From: an uncultured cyanobacterium
Lineage (GTDB): Bacteria; Cyanobacteriota; Cyanobacteriia; Cyanobacteriales; CAWUOF01
Reading direction: 5' to 3'
Length of the DNA: 64,000 nt
Assembly (NCBI GenBank): GCA_963744145.1
Contig: CAVUSO010000001.1
Location: forward strand, 6,912,001 to 6,976,000
The notes beneath the pieces are model-generated. The model saw only the letters and a list, made by a program, of their open reading frames with translations, made no database searches and was not told the origin of the DNA. Positions 19,363 to 64,000 of this stretch are shown in pieces. The position numbers were made by a program, and so were the translations under genes. The first letter of the stretch is position 1, and every line of letters starts with the position of its first letter.

Positions 19363-20748
19363 ATGGACGTTAATGAAATCTTAAAACTTACAGATGAGCT
19401 AGTTTTTACCAAGATGGGGAAGCATTTAGATTATCTGCAAAAAGCTATATTAAAAGGAACTTTGCTAAATCAGACCTACTCGAAAATTGCCGAAACTACT
19501 TATACAAGCGAAGGTCATGTTAGGGATGTGGGAGCAGAATTGTGGAAGATACTTTCAGAGGGATTGGGAGAAGAGGTAAGTAAAACAAATCTTAGAACAA
19601 TTTTAGAAAAAATAGAATTCAACAATTTTTCATCAGCTATTATTAGTGGTAATGTAACAGTTAATAACGTTAATTTTTGCGAAGAAAAAGCGCCTAAATT
19701 TCCTGAAAACCACCACCAACCAAAAACTAAACCCCATATAGACTTAGGAGAAGCACCCGAAATAGTTAGTTTTTACGGACGGACTGAGGAACTGACTAGA
19801 TTAGAAAATTGGATACTGGAAGAACACTGTCGCTTTGTGACAATATTGGGAATTAATGGGATCGGAAAAACAGCTCTTTCTATTCGTCTAATCGAGCAAA
19901 TAAAAACTCACTTTGATTACGTTATTTACCGAAGTCTACGTTTTGCACCTACCCTAGATTTAACTCTAAACAACCTGTTGCAAATATTCTCTTATCCATC
20001 TAAAAATTCTGCGCTCAAAAAATCAACTTCTGACCATATTGATATCCTAATTTCTGAACTAATTAAACACTTCCGACAGAATCGCTGCTTGATCGTATTA
20101 GATGATGCTCAAGCACTTTTTAGTAGTAAACAACTAGCCGGACAATACAAGCGTAATTATGAAAATTATTATCTTTTTTTTAACTTAATTATAGCAACTT
20201 CTCATCAAAGTTGTTTGCTATTAAATAGCAGGGAAAAGCCTAGAGAAGTTGTGAAAGTAAAAAAAGAAAACAATCCTTTGCGTTGTTTGGTATTAGCAAG
20301 TTTAGGAATAGCAGCTAAAGAAATTTTACAAGAACAGCAGTTAACCGATGAAACAACCTGGGAAAAATTAATTAATATCTATCAAGGTAATCCTCGATGG
20401 TTAGAGTTTACTACAACTATGATCCAAGAGGTATGTGGTAGTAGTGTTGCTAACTTTTTGCAATACGATATGCCAATTTTAGCTGAACCATTACAAGTAG
20501 ACTTAGATCAACATTTTCAGCGTTTAACTCCGCAAGAACAAGCGATAATGATTCAGCTCACCAAAGAGAGTGAACCGATTACTTTACTGCAATTGATGGA
20601 AAAAATCAATTTATCTTCTTCTGAATCACTGAATGCTATGCAATCTCTAGGACGCCGATTTTTATTAGATGGAATTCAGCAGGAGAATGGATTTTTTTTC
20701 ACTTTGGAGACAGTGATCAAACAGTATGTGAAAAATCGGTATTTGTAA
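19363..20748 (+). CDS. STAND ATPase: N-terminal HTH (vWA-MoxR-associated type) + NB-ARC, no C-terminal WD40/TPR sensor
   Basis: LDYLQKAILKG...TYSKIAE...ELWKILSE; FYGRTEEL; Walker A GINGIGKT; Walker B LIVLDD; YQGNP. Confidence 0.85.
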   Translation: MDVNEILKLTDELVFTKMGKHLDYLQKAILKGTLLNQTYSKIAETTYTSEGHVRDVGAELWKILSEGLGEEVSKTNLRTILEKIEFNNFSSAIISGNVTVNNVNFCEEKAPKFPENHHQPKTKPHIDLGEAPEIVSFYGRTEELTRLENWILEEHCRFVTILGINGIGKTALSIRLIEQIKTHFDYVIYRSLRFAPTLDLTLNNLLQIFSYPSKNSALKKSTSDHIDILISELIKHFRQNRCLIVLDDAQALFSSKQLAGQYKRNYENYYLFFNLIIATSHQSCLLLNSREKPREVVKVKKENNPLRCLVLASLGIAAKEILQEQQLTDETTWEKLINIYQGNPRWLEFTTTMIQEVCGSSVANFLQYDMPILAEPLQVDLDQHFQRLTPQEQAIMIQLTKESEPITLLQLMEKINLSSSESLNAMQSLGRRFLLDGIQQENGFFFTLETVIKQYVKNRYL

Positions 20749-41962: not shown

Positions 41963-42019
41963 TTGTCTTGCTGGCAGTTAAACGCCAGAATAGGGATTAT
42001 TCACAAGTTATTTCCTCCT

Positions 42020-42364
42020 ATGCTATTGAAATCTACCACTCGTCATGTCCACATTTTTGCCGCTCAAGTCGTCAATAACGAGCTAATTGAAAGCGATCGC
42101 GTTTTGACCCTTGATATCGATCCAGATAATGAATTGAACTGGAATCAAGACTCTTTGCAAAAGATTTATCGGAAATTTGATGAACTGGTAGCATCCTACA
42201 ATCAAGCAGATTTAACCGAATATAATTTGCGTCGGATTGGATCAGACCTTGAGCATCTCGTCCGTGCGCTCCTGCAAAATGGTGAAATTAGCTACAATCT
42301 CAACAGCCGAGTAGTCAACTATAGTATGGGATTACCCCAAGTAGTTGCTAAAAATGGAAACTAA
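42020..42364 (+). CDS. ndhM: NDH-1 subunit M
   Basis: MLLKSTTRHVHI...LTLDIDPDNE...YNLRRIGSDLE...NYSMGLP. Confidence 0.95.
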   Translation: MLLKSTTRHVHIFAAQVVNNELIESDRVLTLDIDPDNELNWNQDSLQKIYRKFDELVASYNQADLTEYNLRRIGSDLEHLVRALLQNGEISYNLNSRVVNYSMGLPQVVAKNGN

Positions 42365-45141: not shown

Positions 45142-45229
45142 CTTGATTAACTTTTAGGTTTAATCTGGGTTAAAGTTAAATTAGTTTAACCTGTTAATCA
45201 TTTAATCTTGATAGAGAATATATTGCCAT

Positions 45230-45958
45230 ACGGTTCAGTTAACTGTAGGGGCGAACGCGAGAGCGTGCCGGAGGCATAGCATTCGGGCGATAATTCATCA
45301 CTTAAACCTTTACCCTGAGCGTAGTCGAAGGGCATTAATTTTAGATCCGAATGCTTCGCCCGGTTTTTCGCCGAGATCTCCAAAAACATTCTTAACTGAA
45401 TCCTATTGTGCTATAGGCGATCGCTTTGATGCGTAAATGGCCGAGGGCAAAGTATTTCAATTATGGTTCTATGGTTTGATTGAGGTTCACTATAATTTCA
45501 TCGCTTTGATTTATAAATGGCCGAGGGCAAAGTATTTCAATGATGGTTCTATGGTTTGATTGAGGTTCACTATAATTTCATCGCTTTAATGCGTAAAAAG
45601 GTCCGAGGGCAAAGCATTTCGGTCATGGTTCTCTGGTGTTAGACAATTCTGATCTGCCGAAATGCTTTGCCCCTACAAATCCGGACTGAAAATATAATCC
45701 GGTTCGGTTAACTGTAGGGGCGTTCGCGTAGCGTGCCGTAGGCATAGCATTCGGGCGATAATTGATCACTTAAACTTTACCCTGAGTTTACCCTGAGCGT
45801 AGTCGAAGGGCGTAGTCGAAGGGCAGTTAATTTTAGATCCGAATGCTTCGCCCGGTTCTTCGCCGAGATCTCCAAAAAAAAATCTTGACTGAATATAATT
45901 TAATATAAAGTTGATCTGTTGGCTTGCGAGAACCCCTACGGTTAACTGAACTGTATTG
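45230..45958. repeat. Mosaic of MITE/REP-like elements, 80-bp tandem repeats (45421-45600) and nested small dispersed repeats
   Basis: cggttcagttaactgtaggggcg...ccgaatgcttcgccc twice; inverted copy of the 16.1-kb REP hairpin (45605-45676); ccctgagcgtagtcgaaggg inserts. Confidence 0.8.
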
Positions 45959-46309
45959 GAATATACTACTCATTCCTCCGTGACTGAGTGGAGCAGCATT
46001 AAGCTCTTAAATTTTGCGAATATCTAAATTAAATGCTGATCAGCTTATGGTCAAAATACACATTATTAATTAGGTCATTATAAAATCTATGATCAAGATG
46101 GAAAATTGTGAGAGTAGCCTGATAAACTTTGGTCAATATCATGATTATAAATTCGGCAAAGATCTGATAGCTAATTTACCAGAAAACGCAGTAAGAGTAA
46201 TTGTCAACATATATAAAGTTTTGTATCAAGATTTAACATTTCTGCAATTTAGCTTAATATTGATATTGAATTGGTATTACAAGTAGCGAAAATCAAGTGG
46301 AGCAAAAAC

Positions 46310-47398
46310 ATGAAACTTTCTATTTCTAAAACCCTACTCGGAATCAGCATTGCAACATTAAGTTTATTGGTAGTAACTGGACAAGCCAAAGCCGCAATGT
46401 TAACCACTGGAACTACATTCAGTATATCGACTGAGGATATGTGCGATAGCATGGGCTTGATCGTTAACGATACTGATGCAAACCACACTACTGACAGCAA
46501 TACAGGTTGGCAGTATACATCGAATCCAGACAGTAATGGGGTAGATGGTTTCTATTGGTTAAATCCAGGACCTGATGGAATAAACCACTATCAAATGAGA
46601 GGCGTTGCTGTTCTAGAAACTGCTACTAGCATTATTGTGGCTTTAAATGCTAATATGCCATTAGGTGGAGCTCCTGACCCTAATTTTTGGCATACAGTCA
46701 CAGGTAATCAAATAGGATGGGGTGACTTATTCTTCAACTTCAAAGGTGAAACCTTTGATCAAGCTCAAGCCGCAGGAGATTTGTTTGGAATTCGTTTTTC
46801 TTCAGCTAATGCTTCTACTGTAGGTGTTGGTCTTTATAGTGATGTAAAAGCTCAGACTTTGACTGACCAAAAAGACGGTTATACTGTTGCTAATTTTGGT
46901 GGGATTGATGGTGGACTCAATTCTTACGAAAGCCAAGTAATAGAGGGTGGTGGTAAAGTAGACTTCGGCGATGTCGATACTAACTACTTTACTAATAACG
47001 GCACAGACAATACATTTAACCTGGATTCGATCGCAACAGGAACATTACTCTCACCAATTTCTTTCTTATCAACAGGTTCTGTGACTCAAGCATTACTAGA
47101 TACTGGATATAATGCTAGTCTATTTAATGGTCTAAATAATCAAACTATTGGTACAAACACCATTGCTTTCGAGTTTAATAAATCTGCGATCGCTAATAAT
47201 GCTCAAGCAGCAGCAGCAGCTAACATTATACCAACTACATCAAGTCAAGTACCTGAATCTACTACATCCGATGAAGTACCTGAACCTACTACATCAGAGC
47301 AAGTACCTGAACCTACTACTATTGGTGGGATACTGTTAGGCGGTTTATTACTGAAGAAAATGAAAGCTAACCGCAAATTGAATAATGTTGCTCAGTAA
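46310..47398 (+). CDS. PEP-CTERM exosortase-dependent surface protein (XDD3-like)
   Basis: Signal peptide, IGWGDLFFNF, VPEPTTIGGILLGGLLLKKMKANRK C-terminus. Confidence 0.88.
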   Translation: MKLSISKTLLGISIATLSLLVVTGQAKAAMLTTGTTFSISTEDMCDSMGLIVNDTDANHTTDSNTGWQYTSNPDSNGVDGFYWLNPGPDGINHYQMRGVAVLETATSIIVALNANMPLGGAPDPNFWHTVTGNQIGWGDLFFNFKGETFDQAQAAGDLFGIRFSSANASTVGVGLYSDVKAQTLTDQKDGYTVANFGGIDGGLNSYESQVIEGGGKVDFGDVDTNYFTNNGTDNTFNLDSIATGTLLSPISFLSTGSVTQALLDTGYNASLFNGLNNQTIGTNTIAFEFNKSAIANNAQAAAAANIIPTTSSQVPESTTSDEVPEPTTSEQVPEPTTIGGILLGGLLLKKMKANRKLNNVAQ

Positions 47399-47415
47399 TT
47401 AACAACTAAAATTAT

Positions 47416-47549
47416 GGTTCCTCCGCACTTGTGATGGAAAATCCCGTTTTAGGGCAGATGGCGAGGGGCAGAGAGCAGGGAAAAAGCTTACTACATAAGC
47501 TTTGTAAATTCAATAATTTTTACTGATCACCACAAGTACAGGGGAGCCA
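47416..47549. mobile_element. Possible MITE with imperfect ~21-bp terminal inverted repeats
   Basis: ggttcctccgcacttgtgatg vs reverse complement of caccacaagtacaggggagcc. Confidence 0.4.
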
Positions 47550-47555
47550 TCTTTT

Positions 47556-50500
47556 ATGAAGAGTATAAATATTTATTTAAGTATTATTCCTATAATTGTA
47601 ACAGTTACTAATAACAGTATTATTATAGCCCAGACTATCATACCAACTGCCAATAGTACAGGTACAATAATCAAATCAGTAGGCAATCAATATAACATCC
47701 AAGGCGGTAAATTATCCGCAGATAGAACAAACTTATTCCACAGTTTTGATAAATTTGGACTGAATACAGGTCAAATTGCTAATTTTATTTCTACTCCACA
47801 AATTCGTAACATTTTAGGAAGAGTAACGGGAGGAGAAGCCTCTATTATTAATGGTCTAATTAAAGTAACTGGTGGAGATACTAACTTATTTTTAATGAAT
47901 CCAGCAGGAATTGTATTTGGAAATAATGCGAGTTTGAATGTTACTGCATCATTTACTGCCACAACTTCTACAGGAATTGGATTCAATAATAATCAATGGT
48001 TTAATGCTGTTGGTAATAATAATTATAGTAATTTAATGGGAAATCCATTCCAATTTGCCTTTGATTTAACTAAGTCAGGAAATATTATCAATTCCGGAAA
48101 GTTAACCGTATCAATGGGAGAAAATTTAACATTATTAGGCGGTAACGTAATTAATACAGGGGAACTGACAGCACCTTCGGGTAATATTACTATTACTGCT
48201 GTCCCAAATCAGAATGTTGTAAAAATATCGCAACCTGGAAATATTCTAAGTCTAGAAATCGCACCACCACGAGATAATAATGGGCAAATATTACCAATAA
48301 ATTCTGTAGATTTACCAACTTTGCTAACAGGAACAGCTAAGAATGTAGATACAGGATTGAGTGTCAATACATTTGGTAATGTGCAATTAAATCAGTCAGG
48401 AATGATTTTACCAAATGAGCAAGGGGTAGCAATTACAGCAGGGAATATTTCAGTAGCAGGAATAAAGGGAAATTCAGTAGGTGGAAATGTAAATATTTTA
48501 GGTGACAAAGTAGGAGTATTTAATAGCAATATAGATGCTTCTGGTGTTGCTGGAGGGGGAACAGTAAGAATTGGTGGAGATTATCAAGGAGGGGGAATTT
48601 TACCTCATGCCACCCAAACTATTGTTGCACCCGATGCTAGTATTACTGCTAATGCAACAGGAATAGGAAATGGCGGCAAAGTAATAGCTTGGTCTGATAA
48701 TTTAACTCAATATTATGGCAATATAACTGCCCGTGGTGGTGTGAATGGTGGCGATGGCGGATTAGTAGAAACTTCAGGAAAAGACTTACTGATTTTTACA
48801 GGTGGGGTAGATGCGGGTGCAACATTAGGAAAACCAGGAACTTTACTCCTTGATCCCAAAAATATTACTATTACGGCTAGTTCACCCCTAACTACTATTT
48901 TTAACCCCAATACATCAGGTAGCTATTTTGGCTATTCAGTAGCCACAGATGGAAGCAACCTACTGGTTGGAGCATATCAGAACACATCGGGGGGAGTCTC
49001 ACAAGCAGGACAAGCCTTTTTGTTTAATACCAGTGGGTCGCTGTTGCAAACTTTCAATAACCCCAATCCTGTAACATCTGGCTGGTTCGGCAATTCAGTA
49101 GCTATATCAGGAAGCAACCTACTGATTGGGGCACCAAATAATACATCGGGGGGAGTCTCACAAGCAGGACAAGCCTTTTTGTTTAATACCAGTGGGGGGC
49201 TGTTACAAACTTTCGATAATCCCAATCCTGTAACACCTGGCAACTTCGGCTGGTCAGTAGCTATATCAGGAAGCAACCTACTAATTGGGGCAAATGGTAA
49301 CACATTGGGGGGAGTCTCACAAGTAGGACAAGCCTTTTTGTATAATACCAGTGGGGGGCTGTTGCAAACTTTCAATAACCCTAATCCTGTAACAGGTGGC
49401 AGCTTTGGCAGTGGAGTAGCTATATCAGGAAGCAACCTACTAATTGGGGCAGGAGGTAACACATCAGGGGGCGTCACATTTGCAGGACAAGCATTTTTGT
49501 TTAACACCAGTGGGGGGCTGTTGCAAACTTTCAATAACCCCAATCCTGTATTATTTGGATTATTCGGCAATTCATTAGCTATATCAGGAAGCAACCTACT
49601 AATTGGGGCAGGAGGTAACACATCGGGAGGAATCCAATTTGGAGGACAAGCCTTTTTGTTTAATACCAGTGGGATGTTACTGCAAACTTTCGATAACCCC
49701 AATCCAGGACCAACTGGCTTCTTCGGCTTGTCTGCAACTGCTATATCAGGAAGCAACCTACTGATTGGAGCAGCACTTAACACATCGGGGGGAGTTTCAG
49801 CAGCAGGACAAGCCTTTTTGTTTAATACCAGTGGGGGGCTGTTACAAACTTTCGATAATCCCAATCCTGTAGTAGGTGGCGAATTCGGCTTTTCTGCAGC
49901 TATATCAGGAAGCAACCTACTGGTTGGGGCACTAAATAATACATCGGGAGGACAAGCATTTTTTGGTAGTCCAACCTATCCAGGAGTATTATCTTTTAGT
50001 GATAATCCTAGTGCTTCAGTTAATGTTAATCCTACTGATATTACTAATGTTACCAATACAGGTACTAATGTGGTACTCCAGGCACATAATGATATTACGG
50101 TTGCCCAATCAGTTATCACCTCTGCTGGGGGAAATGGTGGTGCACTTACACTGCAAGCAGGACGCAGTATTTTAGTTAATGCCAATATCACTACCGATAA
50201 TGGAAATTTAACTCTAGTAGCGAATGAAACTGCCGCTAATGGAGTGCTAAGTCAATATCGAGATCCCGGTTTTGCTAATATTACCGTTGCACCTGGAGTC
50301 ATACTTAATTCTGGTACAGGTGATACGACAATTCGCATTAATACTGGTGTGGCTACAGGTAGTGGTGGTAATATTAGTTTGCAAAATATTATTGCTAACA
50401 ATCTGCTCGTCGAGAACTTAGGAGCTAGTAACAGTAACATTATTTTAAATACTCCCTTGACTTTGACCGGAAATATTACTTTAAATGCGAATGGAGATGT

Positions 50501-53454
50501 AATTACTCAATCGCTGACAACTCCGAAGAATAGCATTAGTATTACGAGCAATTTAGGTCAAATTGATACAACTAACGGCCCGCTTGATACTAGCTCAACT
50601 GGTGCGGGGGGAGATGTAACTTTAACAGCAAATCATCTCGGCATTATGACAGGTAATATTAATAGTAATTCTACCGGAAGTGGTAAAGGAGGAAATATCA
50701 CTATTACCAGTGGGGATGCGATCGATACCACTCTAGGAACTTTGAATTCTAGTTCAATGACAGGTCAAGGTGGAGATATTACCTTGAATGCGAATAGCAA
50801 TATAAAAATCGCTAATCTCAATACAAATAGCAATCTTAGTAGCGGAGCCGGAGGAAATATTACTCTCACTAGTAATGGCGGCTTAATTACTAATGTAGCT
50901 GGGACGATTAATGCAACTGCAAATTCAGGTAATGGCGGAAATATATCCCTAATGAGTACCAGCGATATTATCATCAATAATAATATCAATAGCAATTCTA
51001 ATGGGACGGGGAAAGGAGGAGATATTTCTTTAAATAGCACTCAGGGTGCGGTGCAGATTAATTCTCTCAATTCAACTTCAGCTTTTGGAAATGGTGGCAA
51101 TTTAACGATTAATGCGGCTCAGGATATTAAAGGATTGCTGCTCTTTGCTGATGCGACTAAAGGTCAGGGAGGAAATATTAGTTTCACTAGCACTAATGGA
51201 GCAATTAACATTAGTTCTCTCAGTGCTAATTCTCATAATTCTCAAGGTGGAACCTTATTTCTCCAAGCGAATGGCAATATCACCACGGGAGATTTAAGTG
51301 CTAAAGGGATTACGGGCATTAGTCAAGGTGGTCAGATTTCTATTATTAGTAAAAATACCGCGATCGCTGTAGGCAATATTACCACAACTGGTACAACAAG
51401 TGGGGGAAATATATCGTTACAAGCGAGTACCCAAATTACTACTAAACAAATTGATTCTAGTAGCATTAATGGAGCAGGTGGTAATCTCCTGATTAACTCC
51501 ACGGGAGATGTACAAGTGAGTAATATTAATACTTCTGGTCAGACAACGGGAGGTAATGTAGATATTACCGCAGATACATATTTGCGAGTAAATATACCCC
51601 TAACTATAGCTAATTGTGGCACAGTGAGTATTTGCACGATCGATAATAGTCAAGGAGGGAATATATTTCTCAGACATGGTGGTGATGGGGTGGTTCCATT
51701 TATCGTGGGAGATGCAACGCTCAATGGTACAGCAAGTGCAATATATAAAGGAAATGGGACAGAACAAAAGATTACGAGCGGTTCCTTCTTAGGAACTCAA
51801 GTGCAAGATAACGGGACACTGGGAATTATTACTAAGACCCCTGCTATATCCACCCCAACACCTGCTCCAACATCAACATCGACATCAACATCAACCTTTG
51901 CAACATTTGTACCAACACCAATACCAACACCAATACTAACACCAATACCAACCTCTGCTCTCACATTAACACCAACACCAACACCAACACCAACATTAAC
52001 ACCAACACTAACACCAACATTAACACCAACACTAACACCAACATCAACATCTGTACCAATAGAGGAGCATCAGAATAATTTAAATATCAATCCTGTGGAT
52101 TTAACTAAATTACCAGATCACCTAGATTCTTCCTCATTGTTCCAAGATGATACTTCTCAAAATTTGACCATTGATAAATCAATGAGTCAAGAATATACGA
52201 AGTATTTTGAGTCTAGCTGATATGGCAGAATTAAATACTAATAAAATCCGAGAGTCTCTGACTAATATTGAAAGACATACTGGGATTAGGCCCGCAATTA
52301 TTTATGTATTTTTTGCGCCTAGCACAATTACTCCTGTCCCTATCAATCATGATCTAAAAATTAATGAAAATACCTTAAAAGAACGAAATTTAGGGTTGTT
52401 AAGAGCGGGAATACCGGAAACCCAAGATCATTTAGAATTAATTTTAGTCGCAGCAGGTTCTCACCCAATTCGCAAGTCCTTAAATGTGACTAGAACTGAA
52501 GTTCTCGCGACTGCTAAAAAATTTCAGGATGCCATAGCTGACCAAAAAATCACGCGAGAATATGTAGTGCCAGCTCAACAAATGTATCAATGGTTAGTCG
52601 CTCCTTTAGCCAGGAATTTACAAGAATTGAATATTCAAAATTTGGTCTATATCATGGATCAGAAACTGCGGACTCTACCTTTAGCAGCGATGCAAGATGG
52701 TAAAGGTTTTCTGATTGAACACTATAGTGTGGGATTAATGCCAAGTTTTGCCCTGACTGACCCCAGTTATCAGGATATTCACCAGGCTCAATTATTGGCA
52801 ATGGGTAGCACTAATTTCTCGGAAGTCTTCCATCTCGGTACTTTACCATCAGTCAAAGCGGAAGTAAATTTGGCGCATCAAATTTGGGGAGGTAAATCTT
52901 TTCTGAATGACGAATTTACCCTGGAAAACTTAAAATCTCAACGGGAACATCATCCCTTTAGAATTGTCCATTTAGCTACCCATGCTGACATTGATCCAGG
53001 TACAGCAGACGACTCTTATCTTTATTTTACGAAGGAAAGATTATCTCTGCCTAATTTGCGTTCAATTAAGTGGAATAATCCCCCAGTGGAACTATTAGTT
53101 TTAAGTGCTTGTCAGACCGCAGTAGGAGATGAAGATGCAGAATTAGGTTTTGCGGGATTAGCAGTCCAATCTGGGGTGAAATCAGCCTTAGCTTCCTTAT
53201 GGCATATTTCCGATGAAGGTACTCTGGGATTAATGACGGAGTTTTACGAGCAACTGAAAACAGCACCAATAAAAGCCGAAGCTTTACGTCGCGCTCAGTT
53301 AGCAATGATGCGAGATAAAGTGCGCTTAGAAGCAGGAAAGTTAGTCACCAGTCAGCAATCTTTTCCCTTACCTCCTGAGTTAGTTGAGTTGCATCACCAA
53401 TTCAGTCATCCTTATTATTGGAGTGGGTTTACCATTATTGGTAATCCTTGGTAA
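47556..53454 (+). CDS. FHA-like (TPS N-terminal) beta-helix + 7 FG-GAP-like repeats + PT linker + CHAT protease, copy 1 (+1 frameshift at ~52209)
   Basis: NLFHSFDKF, NLFLMNPAGIVFG, GGLVETSGK, LLLDPKNITI; 53-aa repeats; HLATHA/LSACQTA; HPYYWSGF; one extra base versus copy 2 (tttgagtcta vs tttgggcta). Confidence 0.88.
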
Positions 53455-53505
53455 ATTCACCGACTCGATCGATCTTGGTCTTTGGACCATCCCCAATGGT
53501 AACCT

Positions 53506-56500
53506 ATGAAACATTTCCTCCAGATTATTAACGGGTGTTTAACAATTTTCCCTGTAGGGATGATATGTGCTAATATTTGTCCTGGGTTAACACAATCCAT
53601 TATTCCTACTCGCAACGCTACGGGGACCTTAGTTACACCTGTAGGTAATAAATATAATATTAATGGCGGTACTCTTTCGGGCGATCGCACCAATTTATTC
53701 CACAGTTTTGATAAATTTGGACTTTCCACAGGTGAAACCGCCAATTTTATCTCTAGTCCAGGAATTCGCAATATTTTAGGGAGAATTAGCGGGGGAAATC
53801 CTTCCTTAATTAACGGATTAATTCAAGTAACGGGAGGGAATTCTAACTTATTTTTAATCAATCCTGCGGGCATTGTCTTTGGCTCTAATGCGAGTTTAAA
53901 TGTGCCCGCATCTTTTACCGCAACCACAGCGACAGGAATTGGATTTAGTAATAATCAATGGTTCAATGCGATCGGCAATAATAACTATAACAACTTAATC
54001 GGAACACCATCGCAATTTACCTTTGATTTCGCCAAATCAGGAAATATTATCAACGCGGGAAACTTAACCGTACCAGTCGGAGCAAATTTAACCTTACTGG
54101 GTGGTAATGTAATTAATACTGGACAATTGACTGCTCCTGCGGGAAATATTACTATTAATGCTGTGCCAAATCAGAATGTAGTAAAAATCTCGCAACCCGG
54201 ACATATATTAAGTTTAGAAATTGCACCTCCACGAGATTCTACTGGGCAAATATTGCCGATCGCACCTGCCGATTTACCTACTTTACTAACAGGAACAGCA
54301 AAGAATATAGATACAGGGTTGAGTGTTAATGCCAGTGGTAATGTGCAATTAAATCAGTCGGGCATAATTTTACCAAATAAGCAAGGTTTAGCAATTACAA
54401 CAGGGAATATTTCGGTAGCAGGAATAAGTGGAAATTCAGTAGGGGGAAATGTAAATGTTTTAGGAGATAAATTAGGAGTATTTAATAGCAATATCGATGC
54501 TTCTGGCGCTACGGGAGGAGGAATAGTAAGAATAGGTGGAGATTATCAAGGAGGAGGAACTTTACCCCATGCTAGTCAAACAATAATTGCGACCGACTCT
54601 AGTATTAATGCTAATGCCACAGAGACAGGAAATGGTGGAAAAGTAATAGTCTGGTCAGATAGTTTTACCAGTTATTATGGCAATATCACTGCTCGTGGAG
54701 GAGTCAAAGGTGGGGATGGTGGTCTAGTTGAAACTTCAGGCAAAAACTTACTAATTTTTACTGGAGGAGTAGATGCGGGAGCAAATTTAGGTAAACCAGG
54801 AACATTATTGCTTGATCCGAAAAATATCACCATTACTAATGTTAACTCACCCTTAGTTACACTTACCAACCCCAACCCTGTAGCAGGTAGCTTCGGTCTT
54901 TCAGTTGCAGTAACGAATGACAACAAGCTCTTGGTTGGTGCTTACCTTAACACATCGGGGGGATACACAGCAGCAGGACAAGCTTTTTTGTTTAATAGCA
55001 GCGGTGGACTGATCACAACTTTAGACAATCCCAATCCTATAGCAAATGGACAGTTCGGGTCTCAAGTTGCCGTAACAAGTAACAACAACCTGTTGATCGG
55101 CGCTCCTTCCAACCAACAATCGGGGGGGAGTATCATAGCAGGACAAGCTTTTTTGTTTAATAGTAGCGGTAATCTGCTCCGAACTTTAGACAATCCTGTT
55201 CCTTCAGGAGGATTCTTCGGATGGTCAGTAGCTGGAGTGGGCAGTAACTTGTTGATTGGAGCACCTTACAACCAACAATCGGGGGGGAGTACCATAGCAG
55301 GACAAGCCTTTTTGTTTAATAGTAGTGGTAATCTGCTACAAACTTTAGATAATCCCAATCCTGTAACAAATGGAGGATTCGGATGGTCAGTTGCCGCAGC
55401 AGGTAATAACCTCTTGATCGGCGCTCCTTACAACACATCGGGGGGATTACCATCTGCAGGACAAGCGTTTTTGTTTAACAGTAGTGGTAATCTGCTGCAA
55501 ACTTTAGACAACCCTAACCCTGTCTATGCTGGAGAGTTCGGATATTCAGTTGCCGGAGTAGGTAACAACCTGTTGATCGGAGCGTGGAACAATACATCGG
55601 GAGGATTACCATCTGCAGGACAAGCGTTTTTGTTTAACAGTAGTGGGACACTGTTGAAAACTTTAGATAATCCTAACCCTTATACGCCTGCAATGCTTGG
55701 AAATTTCGGAAATTCAGTTGCCGGACTAGGTAGTAATCTGTTGATCGGGGCCTATCAAAACACATCGGGGGGATTTACCGGAGCAGGGCAAGCTTTTTTG
55801 TTTAATAGCAATAATAGTAGTATTAATAATGGGCTACTACAAACATTTGATAATCCTAATCCTGCAACAAATGGCAACTTTGGTGCTTTCGTTGCCGCCG
55901 CAGGTAATAACCCGCTGGTCGGAGCTATTGGTAATGGAGTCTCAGGAGCAGGACAAGCGTTTTTGGTTAGTCCGACCTATCCAGGAGCATTATCTTTTAA
56001 TGACAATCCCAGTGCTTCAGTTAATGTTGATCCGATTAATATTACTAATGTTACTAATACGGGCACTAATGTCGTACTTCAAGTACATAATGATCTGACT
56101 GTTGCCCAACCAGTGATTACCTCTGCGGGAGGACATGGTGGAGCGATTACCCTGCAAGCAGGACGCAGTATTTTAGTTAATGCCAACATCACTACCGATA
56201 ATGGAAATTTAACTCTAGTTGCGAATGAAACTGCGGCTAATGGAATTCTAAGTCAATATCGAGATCCCGGTTTTGCTAATATTACCGTTGCACCTGGAGT
56301 CATACTTAATTCTGGTACAGGTGATACGGCAATTCGCATTAATACTGGTGCGGCGATCGGCAGTGGTGGTAATATTAGTTTGCGAAATATTATTGCTAAC
56401 AATCTCCTAGTCGAGAATTTAGGAGCTAGCAACAGCAACATTATTTTAAATACTCCCCCGACTTTGACCGGAAATATTACTTTAACTGCGAATGGAAATG

Positions 56501-59431
56501 TAACTACTCCGTCGCTGACAACTCCGGGTAATAGCATTAGTATTACGAGCAATTTAGGTCAAATTGATACAACTGGGGGCACTATTGATAGTAGCTCAAC
56601 TGGTGCGGGGGGAGATGTAACTTTAACAACAACTAATCTCGCCATTATTACAGGTAATGTTAATAGTAATTCTACTGGGAGTGGTAAAGGAGGAAATATC
56701 ACTATTACCAGTGGGGATGCGATTGATACCACTCTAGGAACTTTGAATTCTAGTTCAATGACAGGTCAAGGTGGAGATATTACCTTGAATGCGAATAGCA
56801 ATATAAAAATCGCTAATCTCAATACAAATAGCAATCTTAGTAGTGGAGCTGGGGGAAATATTACCCTGAATAGTAATGGCGGTTTAATTACTAATATAAC
56901 TGGGACGATTAATGCAACTGCAAATTCAGGTCATGGGGGAAATATATCCCTAATGAGTACCAGCGATATTATCATCAATAAGAATATCAATAGCAATTCT
57001 AATGGGACTGGGAACGGAGGAGATATTTCTTTAACTAGCACGAGTGGTGCGGTGCAGATTAATTCTCTCAATTCAACTTCAAAGTTTGGGAATGGTGGAA
57101 ATTTAACGATTAATGCTGCTAATAATATTAAAGGATTGCTGCTCTTTGCTGATGCGACTAAAGGTCAGGGAGGAAATATTAGTCTCACTAGCACTACCGG
57201 AGCAATTAATATTAGTTCGCTGAGTGCTAATTCTAATAATGCTCAAGGTGGAACCTTATTTCTCCAAGCGAATAGCAATATCACTACAGGAGATTTAAGT
57301 GCTAAAGGGATTACGGGGATAAGTCAAGGTGGTCAGACTTCTATTATTAGTAAAAAAGCCGCGATCGCGATTGGTAATATTACCACAAATGGTCCAGCAA
57401 GTGGAGGAAATATCTCCTTACAAGCTAGCACCCAAATTACGACTAAACAAATTAATTCTAGTAGCATTAATGGAGCAGGTGGTAATGTGCTAATTGACCC
57501 TACGGGAGATGTGCAAGTGAGTAATATTAATACTGCTGGTCAGACAACAGGAGGAAATGTGGATATTACCGCAGGTACATATTTGCGAGTAAATGTACCT
57601 CTAACTACAGCTAATTGCGGTACAGTGAGTATTTGCACAATTGGTAATAGTCAAGGAGGGAATATATTTCTCAGACATGGGGGTGATGGAGTAGTTCCAT
57701 TTATCGTGGGAGATGCAACGCTCAATGGTACAGCTAGTGCAATATATAAGGGAAATAGTTCAGAACAAAAGATTAATAGTGGTTCCTTCTTGATGACTCA
57801 ATTGCAAGATAACGGGACACTGGGAATTATTACTAAGACCACTGCTATACCAACACCAACACCTGCACCAACATCAACATCAACATCAACATCAACCCTT
57901 GCAACATTTGTACCAACACCAGTACCAACATCTACTCTAATACCAATACCAACACCAACACCAATACCAACACCTGCACCAACACCAATACCAACAACAA
58001 CACTAATACCAACACCTACTCCAACACCTGTACCAATAGAGGAGCATCAGAATAATTTAAACATTAATCCTGTAGATTTAACTAAATTACAAGATCATCT
58101 AGATTCTTCCCTATTGTTCCAAAATGATACTTCTCAAAATTTGGCAATTGATAAATCAATGAGTCAAGAATATACTCAATATTTTGGGCTAGCTGATGTG
58201 GCAGAATTGAGTGTTAGTAAAATCCGAGAGTCTCTGACTAATATTGAAAAACATACTGGGATTAAGCCCGCAGTTATTTATGTATTTTTTGCGCCTAGTA
58301 CGATTACTCCTGTCCCTATTAATAGCGAAGTAAAAATTACTGAAAATCCCTTAAAAGAACAAAATTTAGGTTTGTTAAGAGCGGCAATACCGGCAGCCCA
58401 AGATCATTTAGAATTAATTTTAGTCACAGGAAGTTCTCACCCAATTCGCAAGTCCTTAAATGTGACTAGAGAGGAAGTTCTTGCGACTGCTCAAAAATTT
58501 CAGGATACAGTAGCTGACCAAAAAATGACGCGAGAATATCTGGTGCCATCGCAAAGAATGTATCAATGGTTAGTCGCTCCTTTAGAACAGAATTTACAAG
58601 CATTGAATATTCAAAATTTGGTCTATATCATGGATCAGAAACTCCGCACTCTTCCTTTAGCAGCAATGCGGGATGAGAAAAGTTTTCTGATTGAACGCTA
58701 CAGTGTGGGATTAATGCCAAGTTTTGCCCTGACTGACCCCAGTTATCAGGATATTCATAGTTCTCAATTATTAGCAATGGGTAGCACTAATTTCTCGGAT
58801 GTCTTCCATCTCAGTGCTTTACCATCCGTGAAAGCGGAAGTAAATTTGGCGCATCAAATTTGGGGAGGTAAATCTTTTCTGAATGATCAATTTACCCTGG
58901 AAACCTTAAAATCTCAACGGGAACATCATCCCTTTACAATTGTCCATTTAGCTACCCATGCTGACGTTAATCCGGGTACAGCCGATGACTCTTATCTTTA
59001 TTTTACGAAGGAAAGATTACCTCTGCCTAATTTACGTTCAATTAAGTGGAATAATCCCCCAGTAGAACTATTAGTTTTAAGTGCTTGTCAGACCGCAGTA
59101 GGAAATGATAATGTGGAGTTAGGTTTTGCCGGATTAGCAGTCCAATCTGGGGTGAAATCAGCTTTAGCTTCCTTATGGCATATTTCTGATGAAGGTACTC
59201 TAGGATTAATGACGGAGTTTTACGAGCAATTAAAAACAGCACCAATTAAAGCCGAAGCTTTACGTCGCGCTCAGTTAGCTATGATGTCACCATGAAGTGC
59301 GTTTACAAGCAGGAAAGTTAGTCACCAGTAAGCAATCTTTTCCCTTACCTCCTGAGTTAGTTAATTTGCATCACCAATTCAGTCATCCTTATTATTGGAG
59401 TGGGTTTACCATTATTGGTAATCCTTGGTAA
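53506..59431 (+). CDS. FHA-like/FG-GAP/CHAT protein, copy 2 (+1 frameshift at ~59287 removes the last ~47 aa)
   Basis: 1929-aa ORF; HPYYWSGFTIIGNPW is encoded in the shifted frame to 59431. Confidence 0.9.
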
Positions 59432-59482
59432 ATTCACCGACTCCATCGACCTTGGTCTTTGAACTCTCCCAAATGGTAACCT

Positions 59483-59717
59483 ATGAAACATTTACTCCAG
59501 ATTATTAACGGGTGTTTAACAATTTTCCCGCTAGGGATGATATGTACTAATATTTGTCCTGGGTTAGCACAATCTATTATTCCTACTCGCAACGCTACGG
59601 GCACCTTAGTTACACCTGTAGGTAATAAATATAATATTAATGGTGGTACTCTTGCGGGCGATCGCACCAACCTATTCCACAGTTTTGATCAATTTGGACT
59701 TTCCGCAGGTGAAACCT
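59483..59717 (+). pseudogene. FHA-like/CHAT copy 3, 5' fragment
   Basis: Matches the copy 2 N-terminus up to SAGET, then foreign sequence. Confidence 0.85.
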
Positions 59718-59744
59718 TCTGCTGCCAATCTGCAAAAAATTACG

Positions 59745-59891
59745 CTAAGGATTATGAATCCATTCGTCATGAATTAAGTTAGTCCATTTAGCTCTAAAGA
59801 GATCGGCGATCGCTAATTGAATGAGAATATCTCTAAGATAGTTAGAATAAAGGACACAGGCATCGTATATTACTGTAAATTTGCTAGTCAT
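59745..59891 (-). pseudogene. PIN-domain toxin N-terminal fragment
   Basis: MTSKFTVIYDACVLYSNYLRDILIQLAIADLFRAKWT...HDEW*, overlapping the stop of the upstream HTH gene. Confidence 0.8.
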
Positions 59892-60339
59892 ATAGTCCTA
59901 ATTCTTCAGATATTACCACAATCTCATCTAAAACTTTGCTTCTGGCGGCATCAATATTGGTTTTGTATTCCATTAAGTCGGTAAAGCGGATGCGTCGATG
60001 TTTGCCGACTTTGTGATAGGGAATTACACCTTCTTCTAGTTGTTTGATTAGGAAGGGGTGCGAGACGTTGATTAAATCTGCGGCTTCTTGGGTGGTGAGT
60101 TCGGCATGGATGGGGATGATCGTTACGGCGTTGCCTTGGGACATCTGGGTTAAAATATCTATAAATAGGCGATAGGCGGCGGCAGGGATTGTGGCTGTCT
60201 CTTCACTGCCATCGGCTTCTACGATTTTGAGATGACGGACACTTTCGCTAATGTGCGAGGCAAGAATACGGCTGCTTTCTTTAGAAATTTCGGTTTCTTC
60301 TTCGGTGGGAATATGTAGAGACTGGTTTAGGGCAACCAT
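59884..60339 (-). CDS. Excisionase-type HTH (HTH_17) DNA-binding protein/antitoxin
   Basis: ELTTQEAADLINVSHPFLIKQLEEGVIPYHKVGKHRRI. Confidence 0.88.
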   Translation of the reverse strand: MVALNQSLHIPTEEETEISKESSRILASHISESVRHLKIVEADGSEETATIPAAAYRLFIDILTQMSQGNAVTIIPIHAELTTQEAADLINVSHPFLIKQLEEGVIPYHKVGKHRRIRFTDLMEYKTNIDAARSKVLDEIVVISEELGLYD

Positions 60340-60689
60340 TGGGCAACCTCAGATAGTTTTGTTTTTAGATTGCTGGAAATTGTTTGAATTTTGCTCAAAG
60401 TCTAGCATATTAAAACGCAATAAACGAAATAGTGACAGTGCAAGCGAGGGAAGCGATCGCACTTGGAGCAGATCAAGCCGTTGGTGCTTGGGGTGCTGAG
60501 TAAAGCAGCGCGGTATAATTGACTGTTGCCAAATTTTAGATCTATAAAGTCCGTGCCATTGAATTACCATTATTTTATGGTTATTTTCGGTGGCCCAAGT
60601 ACCTGCCTGCCGTCTTAGCCTTAGCAGATCAGATTTACAGCACATTAGACTGGTGGACTACCCCGCTACGAAGTGCGCCGGGAATACGA

Positions 60690-61082
60690 TCGCAACCAAA
60701 ACTAATTGCTTCAAGGTAAAATCGACAATAAATATCCAATCTTGGCGATATTCTTTTTGACGATTAAGCTCATATAATCCAATCCGTCCTAGCCATTTTA
60801 AAAGTGCAAGTAAAGCTGGGAGTTTTCTGTTCTTCTAAGTTATTAAACAATTCTAAGGTTTTTTCTATTCCTCTAAAACTGCTCCCCCATTTAATTAAAA
60901 GTTGGATAGTTTTTTCTGCTTTTCTAAAGCTTTTTCTTTCCAATTATCTCGACCTGCACAAAATAACCGCGCTAATCTGCTAGGTGGGCTCTTGAACTCT
61001 GACATTAACTTTTACCTTTTCAAGTAAATGTGACACAGTTATTGCATGAATAATATCACTCAAAAACCCACAAAGTCAACAG
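60690..61082 (-). mobile_element. Degraded IS transposase remnant
   Basis: Minus strand MSEFKSPPSRLARLF..GRDNWKEKALEKQKK and, with frameshifts, SFRGIEKTLELF..TPSF..GLYELNRQKEYRQDWIFIVDFT resemble a cyanobacterial transposase family. Confidence 0.55.
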
Positions 61083-61083
61083 C

Positions 61084-61170
61084 CTACCTCCTGAGTTAGT
61101 TCAATTGCATCACCAATTCAGTCATCCTTATTATTGGAGTGGGTTTACCATTATTGGTAATCCTTGGTAA
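61084..61170 (+). pseudogene. FHA-like/CHAT copy 3, 3' tail
   Basis: LPPELVQLHHQFSHPYYWSGFTIIGNPW*. Confidence 0.85.
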
Positions 61171-61221
61171 ATTCACCGACTCGATTGACCTTGGTCTTTG
61201 GACTCTCCCAAATGGTAACCT

Positions 61222-64000
61222 ATGAAACATTTCCTCCAGATTATTAACGGGTGTTTAACAATTTTCTCGCTAGGGATGATATGTGTTAATATTTGTCCTG
61301 GGTTAGCACAATCCATTATTCCTACTCGCAACGCTACGGGGACTTTAGTGACCCCAGTAGGTAATAAATACAATATTAATGGTGGTACTTTTTCGAGCGA
61401 TCGCACCAACCTATTCCACAGTTTTGATCAATTTGGACTTTCCACAGGTGAAACCGCCAATTTTATCTCTAATCCCCAAATTCGGAATATTTTAGGGAGA
61501 GTTACGGGAGGAAATCCTTCCTTAATTAATGGATTAATTCAAGTTACGGGAGGAAATTCTAACTTATTTTTAATGAATCCTGCGGGAATTGTATTTGGCT
61601 CTAATGCGAGTTTAAATGTGCCCGCATCTTTTACCGCAACCACAGCAACAGGAATTGGATTTAGTAATAATCAATGGTTCAATGCGATCGGCAATAATAA
61701 CTATAACAACTTAATCGGAACACCATCGCAATTTGCCTTTGATTTTGCCAAATCAGGAAACATTATCAATGCGGGAAACTTAACCGTACCAGTCGGAGCA
61801 AATTTAATCTTACTAGGTGGTAATGTAATTAATACTGGACAATTGACTGCACCTTCCGGAAATATTACTATTAATGCGGTGCCAAATCAGAATATAGTAA
61901 AAATCTCGCAACCCGGACATATATTAAGTTTAGAAATTACACCACCAAGAGATCCTACTGGGCAAATCTTGCCGATCACTCCGGTTGATTTACCGACTTT
62001 GCTAACAGGAACGAATAATATAGATATAGGTTTAAGTGTTAATACCAGTGGTAATGTGCAATTAAATCAGTCAGGGATAATTTTCCCAAATCAGCAGGGT
62101 TTAGCAATTACAACAGGGCAGATTTCCGTAGCCGGAATAACCGGAAATACAATAGGTGGAAATGTCAATGTTTTAGGAGACAAAGTAGGAATATTTAATA
62201 GTAATATAGATGCTTCAGGTACTACGGGAGGAGGAATAGTAAGAATCGGTGGTGACTATCAAGGAGAAGGAATTTTGCCCCATGCTACTCAAACTATTGT
62301 TGCAGCAGATGCTAGCATCAATACTAATGCTACAGCAACGGGAAATGGTGGCAAAGTAATCGTTTGGTCTGATAATTTTACCAGTTATTATGGCAATATC
62401 ACTGCCCGTGGAGGTAGAAATGGTGGGGATGGTGGTTTAGTTGAAACTTCAGGCAAAAACTTACTAATTTTTACTGGAGGAGTAGATGCAGGAGTAACTT
62501 TAGGCAAACCAGGAACTTTACTCCTTGATCCTAAAAATATCACTATTACTAACGTTAACTCACCACTAGTTACACTTGTCAACCCCAATCATGTAGCAGG
62601 TGGACAGTTCGGTATTTCAGTTACAGCAACGAATGACAACAAGCTCTTGGTTGGTTCTTACTATAACACATCAGGGGGGGTCTCACAAGCAGGACAAGCT
62701 TTTTTGTTTAATAGCAACGGTGGACTGATCACAACTTTAGACAATCCCAATCCTATCATTAATGGACAGTTCGGGAATCAAGTTGCCGTAGCAAGTAACA
62801 ACAACCTGTTGATCAGCGCTCCTTACAATACATCGGGGGGGGTTATAGGCGCAGGACAGGCTTTTTTGTTTAATAGTAGTGGTAATCTGCTCCGAACTTT
62901 AGACAATCCCAATCCTGTAGTAAATGGAGCTTTTGGATGGTCACTGGCTGGAGTGGGCAGTAACTTGTTGATTGGAGCATATGGAAACACATCATTGGGA
63001 GGAATCCCAGTAGCAGGGCAAGCCTTTTTGTTTAATAGTAGTGGTAATCTGCTCCGAATTTTAGATAATCCCAATCCGATCATAACTGGTGGTGGCGCTT
63101 TCGGATGGTCAGTTGCCGCAGCAGGTAATAACCTCTTGATTAGCGCTCCTTACAACACATCGGGGGGGTTCACCCAAGCAGGACAAGCGTTTTTGTTTAA
63201 CAGTAGTGGGACGCTGATGCAAACTTTAGATAATCCTAACCCTGTAGTGAATGGACAGTTCGGATATTTAGTTACCGGAGTAGGTAACAACCTGTTGATC
63301 GGCGCTCCTTACAACACATCGGGGGGGTTCACCCAAGCAGGACAAGCGTTTTTGTTTAACAGTAGTGGGACGCTGATGCAAACTTTAGATAATCCTAACC
63401 CTGTAGTGAATGGAAGTTTCGGAATTTCAGTTGCCGGAGTAGGTAGCAATCTGTTGATCGGGGCGTATGGAAATAAATCGGGGGGATTGACTGGAGCAGG
63501 GCAAGCTTTTTTGTTTAATAGCAATAATAGTCATATTAATAATGGGTTACTACAAACATTTGATAATCCTAATCCTATAGCAGGTGGCAGCTTTGGCATT
63601 TCCGTTGCCGCAGCAGGTAATAACCTGTTAATCGGAGCTAATAGTAATGGAGTCTCAGGAGAAGGACAAGCGTTTTTGATTAGTCCGACCTATCCAGGAG
63701 TATTATCTTTTAATGACAATCCTAGTGCTTCGGTTAATGTTGATCCGATTAATATTACTAATGTTACCAATAGGGGTACTAATGTCGTACTCCAGGCACA
63801 TAATGATCTGACTGTTGCCCAACCAGTTACTACCTCTGCGGGGGGAAATGGTGGCGCACTTACTCTCCAAGCAGGACGTAGTATTTTAGTTAATGCCAAC
63901 ATCACCACCGATAATGGAAATTTAACTCTAGTTGCGAATGAAACTGCTGCTAATGGAGTGCTAAGTCAATATCGAGATCCGGGTTTTGCTAATATTACCG
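61222..64000 (+). CDS. FHA-like/FG-GAP protein, copy 4 (runs off window; CHAT domain presumed)
   Basis: ATG at 61222, same N-terminus, 7 propeller repeats at ~62580-63680, frame consistent to window end. Confidence 0.88.
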   Translation, partial: MKHFLQIINGCLTIFSLGMICVNICPGLAQSIIPTRNATGTLVTPVGNKYNINGGTFSSDRTNLFHSFDQFGLSTGETANFISNPQIRNILGRVTGGNPSLINGLIQVTGGNSNLFLMNPAGIVFGSNASLNVPASFTATTATGIGFSNNQWFNAIGNNNYNNLIGTPSQFAFDFAKSGNIINAGNLTVPVGANLILLGGNVINTGQLTAPSGNITINAVPNQNIVKISQPGHILSLEITPPRDPTGQILPITPVDLPTLLTGTNNIDIGLSVNTSGNVQLNQSGIIFPNQQGLAITTGQISVAGITGNTIGGNVNVLGDKVGIFNSNIDASGTTGGGIVRIGGDYQGEGILPHATQTIVAADASINTNATATGNGGKVIVWSDNFTSYYGNITARGGRNGGDGGLVETSGKNLLIFTGGVDAGVTLGKPGTLLLDPKNITITNVNSPLVTLVNPNHVAGGQFGISVTATNDNKLLVGSYYNTSGGVSQAGQAFLFNSNGGLITTLDNPNPIINGQFGNQVAVASNNNLLISAPYNTSGGVIGAGQAFLFNSSGNLLRTLDNPNPVVNGAFGWSLAGVGSNLLIGAYGNTSLGGIPVAGQAFLFNSSGNLLRILDNPNPIITGGGAFGWSVAAAGNNLLISAPYNTSGGFTQAGQAFLFNSSGTLMQTLDNPNPVVNGQFGYLVTGVGNNLLIGAPYNTSGGFTQAGQAFLFNSSGTLMQTLDNPNPVVNGSFGISVAGVGSNLLIGAYGNKSGGLTGAGQAFLFNSNNSHINNGLLQTFDNPNPIAGGSFGISVAAAGNNLLIGANSNGVSGEGQAFLISPTYPGVLSFNDNPSASVNVDPINITNVTNRGTNVVLQAHNDLTVAQPVTTSAGGNGGALTLQAGRSILVNANITTDNGNLTLVANETAANGVLSQYRDPGFANIT

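Follow-up and report, generated by a model that had tools for sequence, protein, structure and literature searches.

Known CHAT proteases (separase, Craspase, HetF, DdvA) act as switches inside the cell or in the periplasm, and TpsA exoproteins of two-partner secretion (TPS) are known as adhesins and toxin carriers. CdiA is a TpsA protein in which two helical regions flank a variable receptor-binding module and the C-terminus is an enzyme. Integrins bind ligand with a face made of the 4-1 and 2-3 loops of the propeller, and some FG-GAP and integrin blades carry Ca2+-binding, Asp-rich hairpin loops of the DxDxDG type. Here, a tandem gene array combining features of these systems was analyzed in an uncultured cyanobacterium of the Cyanobacteriales (GCA_963744145.1; 7.70 Mb, 4 contigs, 39% G+C). 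The window is the whole 64,000-nt stretch examined (contig CAVUSO010000001.1, positions 6,912,001 to 6,976,000); coordinates are window positions unless prefixed C1, and those beyond 64000 continue the same count along the contig. The complete array comprises eight head-to-tail units and a 110-nt terminal scrap, spanning 42.8 kb of the plus strand (47556-90404 = C1:6959556-7002404). Each full copy encodes, in order, a TPS domain, a short beta-helix, seven FG-GAP_2 blades of 53 residues each, a long beta-helix, a Pro/Thr-rich linker and a CHAT protease. On balance, and with moderate confidence, we interpret the array as a tandem TpsA-type family of a filamentous-type cyanobacterium, in which a surface-displayed, diversified propeller head is coupled to a specific CHAT protease.

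The N-terminal domains of the window copies match PF05860 in Pfam at 137-148 bits (cut-off 33.5; E 1e-39 to 6e-43) and the filamentous-hemagglutinin N-terminal domain TIGR01901 in NCBIfam at 74-83 bits (cut-off 29.1). Searched against solved structures, a family profile retrieved the TpsA adhesins EtpA (8vba, E 2.7e-43) and HMW1 (2odl). In copy 1 the signal peptide and TPS domain occupy 47556-48275 (+), with NLFHSF at 47730-47747 and NPAGI at 47898-47912 (PF05860 E 1.3e-39, TIGR01901 E 4.6e-21). The N-terminus is hydrophobic and, by eye, ends in ...GLAQ/S, a putative Sec signal peptide. Judged by sequence, the array proteins would belong to the TpsA-type exoproteins and are predicted to be secreted. 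They resemble EtpA of enterotoxigenic Escherichia coli, HMW1 of Haemophilus and filamentous hemagglutinin (FHA) of Bordetella in having a TPS domain with NPxG-type motifs, a beta-helical passenger and an Omp85-type TpsB encoded in the genome; they differ in carrying a propeller within the helix and a CHAT domain behind a Pro/Thr tether, in lacking an adjacent TpsB gene and in forming eight tandem paralogues. A profile search of the window returned no ShlB/TpsB match, in agreement with the sequence-only reading made before this analysis, and the genome-wide search returned two good genes, each with POTRA_2 and ShlB (C1:7081393-7082331 and C1:827480-828430). Three related loci (L030, L032, L040) have a TpsB gene next to, and divergent from, propeller-bearing genes of the family; L030 holds all four modules and a TpsB with POTRA_2 and ShlB, and L032 and L040 are cut by contig ends.

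In each of the seven full copies, seven blades of ~53 aa follow directly after LLLDPKNITI, a conserved point of the beta-helix (48843-48872 (+) in copy 1), and a GQAFL-type final strand could close the ring. The blades match PF14312 (FG-GAP_2) at E 1e-25 to 1e-28 in the window copies. With its closing strand, the copy 1 propeller spans 48873-49988 (+), its blade frameworks near-identical in DNA and its hypervariable codons different. Residues 400-880 of copy 2, which include its seven-bladed propeller (54835-55989 (+)), were modelled with AlphaFold from a 30-row alignment. The model had a predicted local distance difference test score (pLDDT) mostly >90 over residues 50-425 and a predicted template modelling score (pTM) of 0.80, and its ~28 strands formed seven sets of four. 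Foldseek comparison with the PDB placed integrin alpha propellers first (E ~1e-16, probability 1.0, query template modelling score (TMq) 0.61 with ~100 disordered flank residues in the query). The statement of exactly seven ~53-aa FG-GAP-like repeats after LLLDPKNITI is true of every readable copy, and model and structural matches agree with the further claim that these repeats fold as a seven-bladed, integrin-alpha-type propeller. The likeness to the integrin alpha propeller extends to the seven four-stranded blades, the FG...GA motif and the rank as top structural match; the differences are an identity of only 18-20%, blade frameworks that are near-identical from blade to blade, and the absence, by inspection of the blade alignment, of Asp-rich DxDxDG-like Ca2+-binding loops.

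A propeller-less paralogue in the same genome reads LLLDPTNINI, then ~25 residues, then a segment equivalent to the post-propeller helix; because it passes straight from the motif into that segment, the propeller is a discrete module that has been inserted into the helix at a conserved point. Other TpsA proteins carry other modules after the same insertion point: DUF5650 repeats in Proteobacteria, and FG-GAP_2 with DUF5649, without CHAT, in a verrucomicrobial TpsA. The suggestion that the propellers are exchangeable recognition heads fits with this distribution.

Variable positions in the blades were located by consensus and entropy analysis of those blade segments with a length of exactly 53 aa, 26 of 48 in total. 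The consensus was xxNTSGGVxxAGQAFLFNTSGGLLQTFNNPNPVxxGxFGxSVAISGSNLLIGA. Entropy reached at least 2.0 bits at positions 1, 2, 9, 10, 34, 35, 37 and 40 and was mostly <1.2 bits at the remainder. Mapped by DSSP, positions 1, 2, 9 and 10 fall in the long loop that leads from strand four into strand one of the next blade (S4-to-S1'), and positions 34, 35, 37 and 40 fall within, or at the end of, the long loop connecting strands two and three (S2-to-S3); the other two connections are short conserved turns, NTSG and SGSN. Since alternate loops of an up-and-down sheet point the same way, the variable residues, ~56 per propeller at eight per blade, should share one face. In other cyanobacteria, too, these eight positions had the highest entropy, as measured on 54 ungapped blades taken from 19 proteins. 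Of 117 homologue clusters, 54 contained blade matches, and 38 of these 54 had exactly seven.

Among the copy 1 blades the framework DNA is almost identical, including at synonymous sites, and the variable codons differ at two or three bases. For rate estimates, variable positions were defined from the other copies, with the tested copy left out. The blade-to-blade ratio of nonsynonymous to synonymous substitution rates (dN/dS) at variable positions within a copy was 6.3 in copy 1, 3.4 in copy 6, 2.2 in copy 7, 1.3 in copy 4 and 0.87 in copy 5, and the framework ratio across these five copies was 0.08-0.35. Between position-matched blades of copies 2 and 4, the youngest pair, amino acid identity was 13/48 at variable positions versus 237/269 elsewhere, and the proportion of nonsynonymous differences (pN) at variable positions was 0.51 against a framework proportion of synonymous differences (pS) of 0.19. 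By analogy only, near-identical tandem units that differ at a few specificity positions recall the repeats of transcription activator-like (TAL) effectors and the leucine-rich repeats of lamprey variable lymphocyte receptors (VLRs); folds and ligands are unrelated, and no assembly or rearrangement mechanism is implied. A diversity-generating retroelement was considered as the source of the variation and rejected: the genome contains only 3 RVT_1 matches, the nearest ~1.87 Mb from the array start, no reverse transcriptase was present among the window open reading frames (ORFs) scanned, and the variable codons differ at all three bases, a pattern that contradicts such an element.

DNA identity was compared module by module for the 21 pairs of the seven full copies. 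It was 65-75% in the propeller, except for copies 2 and 4 (84.9%, like the rest of the gene), 81-91% in helix 2 and 83-93% in CHAT, both without exception, and 83-94% in the TPS domain, except for copy 1 (~75% to all others). In the linker with the N-terminal part of the CHAT region (CHAT-N) it ranged from 62 to 92%; here the groupings disagree with those of the TPS domain, and copies 6 and 8 are diverged (62-73%). Copies 7 and 8, for example, are 94% identical in the TPS domain versus 67.5% in the linker. Because nearest neighbours are incongruent between modules, the genes are mosaics. The sequence-only reading had described the beta-helix parts of the three readable copies, and the PT linker and CHAT domain of copies 1 and 2, as highly similar in DNA; for copies 1 and 2 this is confirmed at 85-93% identity in helix 2, linker and CHAT. 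It had also singled out the propeller as the part that differs. The latter applies to most pairs but not to copies 2 and 4, and it overlooks the TPS end of copy 1 and the linker and CHAT-N of copies 6 and 8. Divergence along the paralogues, which that reading had proposed to compare, is non-uniform and concentrated in the propeller, at eight loop positions per blade. Synonymous divergence (dS) was ~1.0-1.3 in the propeller versus 0.2-0.5 in helix 2 and CHAT. Purifying selection was detected in all modules, with a whole-module dN/dS of 0.14-0.29 in CHAT. On these sequence comparisons, homogenization acts on the constant parts, and the propellers are either old or shielded from conversion.

The C-terminal domain scored 228 bits (copy 1) and 192 bits (copy 2) against PF12770, for a cut-off of 24. 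HLATHA and LSACQT are present in both copies, so that the His and Cys reported as intact are indeed so, and H281, H285 and C328 are invariant in 30/30 aligned paralogues and homologues. A model of the last 440 residues of copy 4 (pLDDT 88, pTM 0.91) matched Csx29/TPR-CHAT of Craspase in Foldseek at E 2.9e-15 and probability 1.0; further fold matches were separase, the periplasmic TPR-CHAT of DdvA, SAVED-CHAT, gingipain and caspases. A sequence search of the CHAT region against solved structures gave no match at E up to 1. Fold match, invariant dyad and purifying selection together uphold the assignment to the caspase-fold proteases, and we infer that the domain is catalytically competent and probably a single-site-specific cysteine protease. 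Fold, His/Cys dyad and a repeat-type putative sensor module in the same protein are shared with Csx29/Craspase, separase, HetF and DdvA. The array differs from the studied CHAT proteases in that its putative sensor is a beta-propeller on a beta-helix predicted to be secreted and not a TPR, and in having no sequence-level match to a solved CHAT chain; its predicted export by two-partner secretion has no precedent among them within the literature searched. The cyanobacterial protease HetF cleaves PatU3 only once, after Arg117 (PMC9457339, in the part of the paper available), and the available part of PMC11506125 proposes that the periplasmic TPR-CHAT protein DdvA cuts its own flexible linker on signal. 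DdvA is a precedent for an extracytoplasmic CHAT domain beside a flexible linker, its proposed substrate (PMC11506125, same part), and both HetF and DdvA lend support to the mechanism favoured below.

Within the window, four units are present, as the sequence-only reading had stated (copies 1 and 2, a remnant of copy 3 and the start of copy 4); the genomic array is longer, at eight units plus the scrap. Copy 1 (47556-53454 (+)) is full length with one frameshift and is assembled as ORFs 47556-52220 and 52207-53454; its Pro/Thr-rich linker lies at 51831-52076 (+) and its CHAT region at 52207-53454 (+), with the His motif at 52969-52986 and the Cys motif at 53101-53118 (PF12770 E 1.8e-67). Copy 2 (53506-59430 (+)), also full length with one frameshift, consists of ORF 53506-59295 (1929 aa) and, in a different frame that runs to 59430, the final ~45 aa of CHAT, with the linker at 57829-58059 (+) and the CHAT domain at 58546-59430 (+; His motif 58945-58962, Cys motif 59077-59094; PF12770 E 2.7e-56). 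Copy 3 (59484-61170 (+)) is a gutted remnant. It retains the first ~78 codons of a unit (59484-59717 (+); weak TPS match at C1:6971594-6971719) and the last ~28 codons of a CHAT domain (61083-61170 (+)), separated by ~1.37 kb of unrelated DNA (59718-61082, without assigned strand) that is unique in the genome and carries a minus-strand 150-aa HTH_17 ORF (59884-60339). Copy 4 (61222-67131 (+)) is intact at 1970 aa, with its first 926 codons within the window (61222-64000) and its propeller at 62548-63702. Beyond the window lie copy 5 (67186-72039; intact, 1618 aa, without ~350 aa of the second helix), copy 6 (72162-78068; intact), copies 7 (78207-84123) and 8 (84233-90174), each with one frameshift, and the terminal scrap, a 110-nt helix fragment (90294-90404). 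Copies 1 and 2 are separated by a 51-nt spacer (53455-53505), the spacers between copies 2 and 3, 3 and 4, and 4 and 5 are 51-54 nt long and near-identical to it, and across the array spacers measure 51-138 nt with the next unit directly after, too short for an immunity gene. The region 45100-64000 was no richer than shuffled sequence in promoter-like sites (62 vs 53.6 +/- 7.8) or terminator-like sites (7 vs 14.5 +/- 3.9). A 312-aa antisense ORF inside the copy 1 propeller repeats (48977-49915 (-)), itself repetitive, is most likely a by-product of repeat codon make-up rather than a gene.

As assembled, four of the seven full copies (1, 2, 7 and 8) each carry one single-base indel, so that copies 1 and 2 are not single open frames: a 1-nt insertion at ~52210 separates the CHAT part of copy 1, and another at ~59287 removes the last ~45 aa of copy 2. 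The indels of copies 7 and 8 are at ~82989 and ~86177. Read through with X at the break, all four copies run without another stop for ~1970 codons, and the indels are accordingly either very recent or assembly errors. Phase variation was considered and is unlikely, as the four indels lie outside repeats and long homopolymers. A search of public sequencing runs for the stretch returned no RNA run and a single DNA run (short-read contigs, depth 2-20), which contained 43% of the sampled words. One of its contigs, with a depth of only 4.6, omits base 52210 and reads C for T at 52212, restoring the copy 1 frame; it is otherwise identical to copy 1 for at least 43 nt on either side, and because every paralogue differs from copy 1 there it represents the copy 1 locus or an allele. 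The run lists no indel at the copy 2 site, where contig coverage of the base is uncertain. A contig of this run joins 63018 (copy 4) to 55303 (copy 2) across 35 shared letters; it is read most simply as an assembly graph path through the paralogue repeat, although it could be a copy-number or recombinant variant. Split genes also occur elsewhere in the assembly. Csm6 6H and HEPN domains lie in two overlapping frames (1005-1856 and 1774-2325 (+)), in what looks like a single-base frameshift, real or an assembly error, adjoining Uma2 endonucleases and a RAMP fragment (488-970). A further apparent frameshift outside the TPS and CHAT families places the N-terminal and catalytic parts of a GH116 glycosidase in two overlapping frames (L089:11499-12860 and 12853-13926 = C1:7083499-7085926). 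Both splits fit indel errors in the assembly, which is no proof of them.

PF05860, PF14312 and PF12770 occurred together in 56 of the best 120 homologue clusters listed, from Coleofasciculus, Spirulina subsalsa, Symplocastrum, Microcoleus and Pleurocapsa, under database names no more specific than 'CHAT domain-containing protein' or 'filamentous hemagglutinin family protein'. The complete order of TPS, propeller, helix and CHAT was present in 23 of the first 40 loci from named genomes, and 8 more were cut by contig ends. Most of these loci are single genes; only 3 (L018, L036, L042) have another unit, or an additional TPS or CHAT match, in the vicinity. Among 30 same-order genomes only 5 gave a propeller match, with a frame of comparable size in only one of these. 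The host genome totals 56 TPS and 85 CHAT matches, most of the latter in TPR-type proteins; elsewhere in it, stand-alone TPS genes lie in clusters with genes for TPR-CHAT, CHASE2 sensors and DUF928 proteins, and one of its TpsB genes adjoins a TPR-CHAT gene. TPS exoproteins are thus tied to CHAT proteases, being fused in the array and clustered elsewhere in the genome. A recurring neighbourhood, at L090 (C1:350001-370000) and L092 (C1:7034001-7054000), contains a TPR-CHAT gene, a CHASE2 sensor (a histidine kinase or CHAT fusion), one or two DUF928 genes and 1-5 TPS genes of ~830 aa, and L092 has a transposase and a further TPS-propeller-CHAT gene alongside. A CHASE2-adenylate/guanylate cyclase gene (7566-9512 (-)) lies 38 kb upstream of the array, and a gene of the same kind directly follows the closest named homologue, in Floridaenema fluviatile (L012:17006-18964). 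Also in the window are a trypsin-like peptidase-TPR fusion (14550-16049 (+)) and a STAND-type NTPase with NB-ARC/nSTAND matches (19363-20748 (+)), both of types seen in bacterial conflict systems, as well as NdhM (41963-42364), part of a gene content that is cyanobacterial, and a 771-aa protein (42826-45141 (+)) with an N-terminal zinc ribbon, a PP2C phosphatase, a membrane segment and a long Ser/Pro-rich tail. The same strand encodes, with its end 157 nt upstream of copy 1, an exosortase-dependent surface protein of the XDD3 family that bears a PEP-CTERM sorting signal (46271-47398 (+)); two kinds of exported surface protein would thus be encoded side by side. A literature search, from whose reach most subscription journals were excluded, found no paper on TPS-CHAT, TPS-FG-GAP or DUF928-CHAT proteins. 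Already known are the individual domains and the architecture as database annotation; new are the array size, the gene-conversion mosaic and the defined hypervariable face common to several genera.

In the mechanism we favour, Sec would probably carry each protein across the inner membrane, and an Omp85-type TpsB encoded elsewhere would thread it outward. At the surface, a beta-helical stalk would present the inserted seven-bladed integrin-alpha-type propeller, one face of which, built from two long loops per blade and bearing ~56 hypervariable residues, would serve as a ligand-binding head. Because the paralogues differ mainly at this face, the array would encode a set of different binding specificities. 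The constant parts would be kept alike by gene conversion, both among copies and among blades, and selection would preserve or drive the differences at the loop codons. A flexible Pro/Thr-rich tether would join the stalk to the C-terminal CHAT domain, which is most likely the output and would cut either its own tether region, for release or maturation, or a protein that the head has brought into its vicinity; coupling of this cleavage to ligand binding is predicted by the model.

Several observations weigh against this interpretation. Neither TpsB gene adjoins the array, the nearer one lying 105 kb beyond the window end, and only two good TpsB genes stand against 56 TPS matches. By analogy with FhaB, the C-terminal domain could remain periplasmic and not reach the surface. 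Flanking regions of the propeller model have pLDDT <50, so that the model does not fix the orientation of the propeller on its stalk, and the placement of the variable loops on one face derives from strand topology, not model coordinates. Whole-module dN/dS of the propeller is 0.19-0.25 between copies (0.65 for copies 2 and 4), and since its dS is near saturation, much of the contrast with the other modules is accounted for by old divergence that was shielded from gene conversion. At the variable positions themselves dN/dS is 0.87 within copy 5 and 0.34 for copies 5 and 6, and all such values are rough, resting on only ~31-34 synonymous sites. Finally, with four of seven full copies frameshifted and one unit gutted, part of the array may be dead.

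Three other explanations were weighed against the coupling of a diversified head to a specific protease. The proteins may be adhesins, or sheath or matrix proteins, of a filamentous mat-former, in which the propeller binds polysaccharide or neighbouring filaments, CHAT acts only in intramolecular maturation or release, and loop variability reflects escape from phages or grazers. Such a role is possible though doubtful. It accords with EtpA and HMW1 being the closest solved structures to the N-terminus, with the concentration of the family in mat- or bundle-forming genera (e.g., Coleofasciculus, Symplocastrum, Microcoleus) and with the PEP-CTERM exosortase-dependent surface protein gene just upstream. 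A mutation in a TPS-domain protein, classed as cell surface, is listed for a phage-resistant Nostoc 7120 substrain in the available part of PMC10811720, which likewise favours such a role and hints that cyanobacterial TPS-domain proteins are exposed and can matter for phage infection. However, phage escape alone would not explain eight paralogues with different heads, nor the same eight variable positions across genera. Conservation of the dyad does not separate the two explanations, because a maturation role fits it equally well. Toxin delivery resembling contact-dependent growth inhibition (CDI), with the propeller as receptor-binding domain and CHAT as a toxin sent into neighbouring cells, is unlikely. 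The order of parts parallels CdiA, the binding module varies between paralogues, and dependence on TpsB is likely, but the 51-138-nt spacers leave no space for immunity genes and none accompany the array, the C-terminal enzyme is the conserved part and not the polymorphic one (83-93% DNA identity, dN/dS 0.14-0.29), Pfam returned no Fil_haemagg, pretoxin or VENN match at E up to 0.01, and the 85 CHAT matches of the genome fall mostly in TPR-type proteins.

We regard it as very unlikely that the array is a decaying or mis-assembled repeat family, made up mostly of pseudogenes or an assembly artefact and without present function. The four frameshifted units of seven, the gutted unit and the terminal scrap, the splits in GH116 and Csm6 and the public contig joining copy 4 to copy 2 (63018 to 55303) would be expected of such a family. 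Against this, the interrupted copies have exactly one 1-nt indel apiece and otherwise run through ~1970 codons without a stop, all modules are under purifying selection, copies 4, 5 and 6 are intact, the copy 1 frameshift is absent from the independent short-read contig that matches copy 1 and not its paralogues, and full-length homologues are common in other genomes.

The array proteins belong to a widespread cyanobacterial protein class that unites CHAT proteases with TpsA exoproteins. Eight variable positions per blade, variable across genera and set in a conversion-homogenized scaffold, form the pattern of a diversified recognition surface. A more far-reaching proposal, which we put forward tentatively and hold to be improbable, is that the array is a germline-encoded repertoire of surface receptors in a multicellular bacterium: faces of ~56 residues on a TALE- or VLR-like scaffold, reshuffled by recombination between blades and copies, would recognize a non-self ligand (phage, predator, competitor or foreign filament) and switch on the tethered protease at the surface or in the periplasm, and its specific cut would lead to a defence or cell-fate response, perhaps via CHASE2 and DUF928 proteins. 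If true, this would constitute an extracellular, recognition-coupled caspase-type pathway in bacteria. The family may also help to account for the great size of the TPS, CHAT, CHASE2 and DUF928 gene sets in filamentous cyanobacteria.

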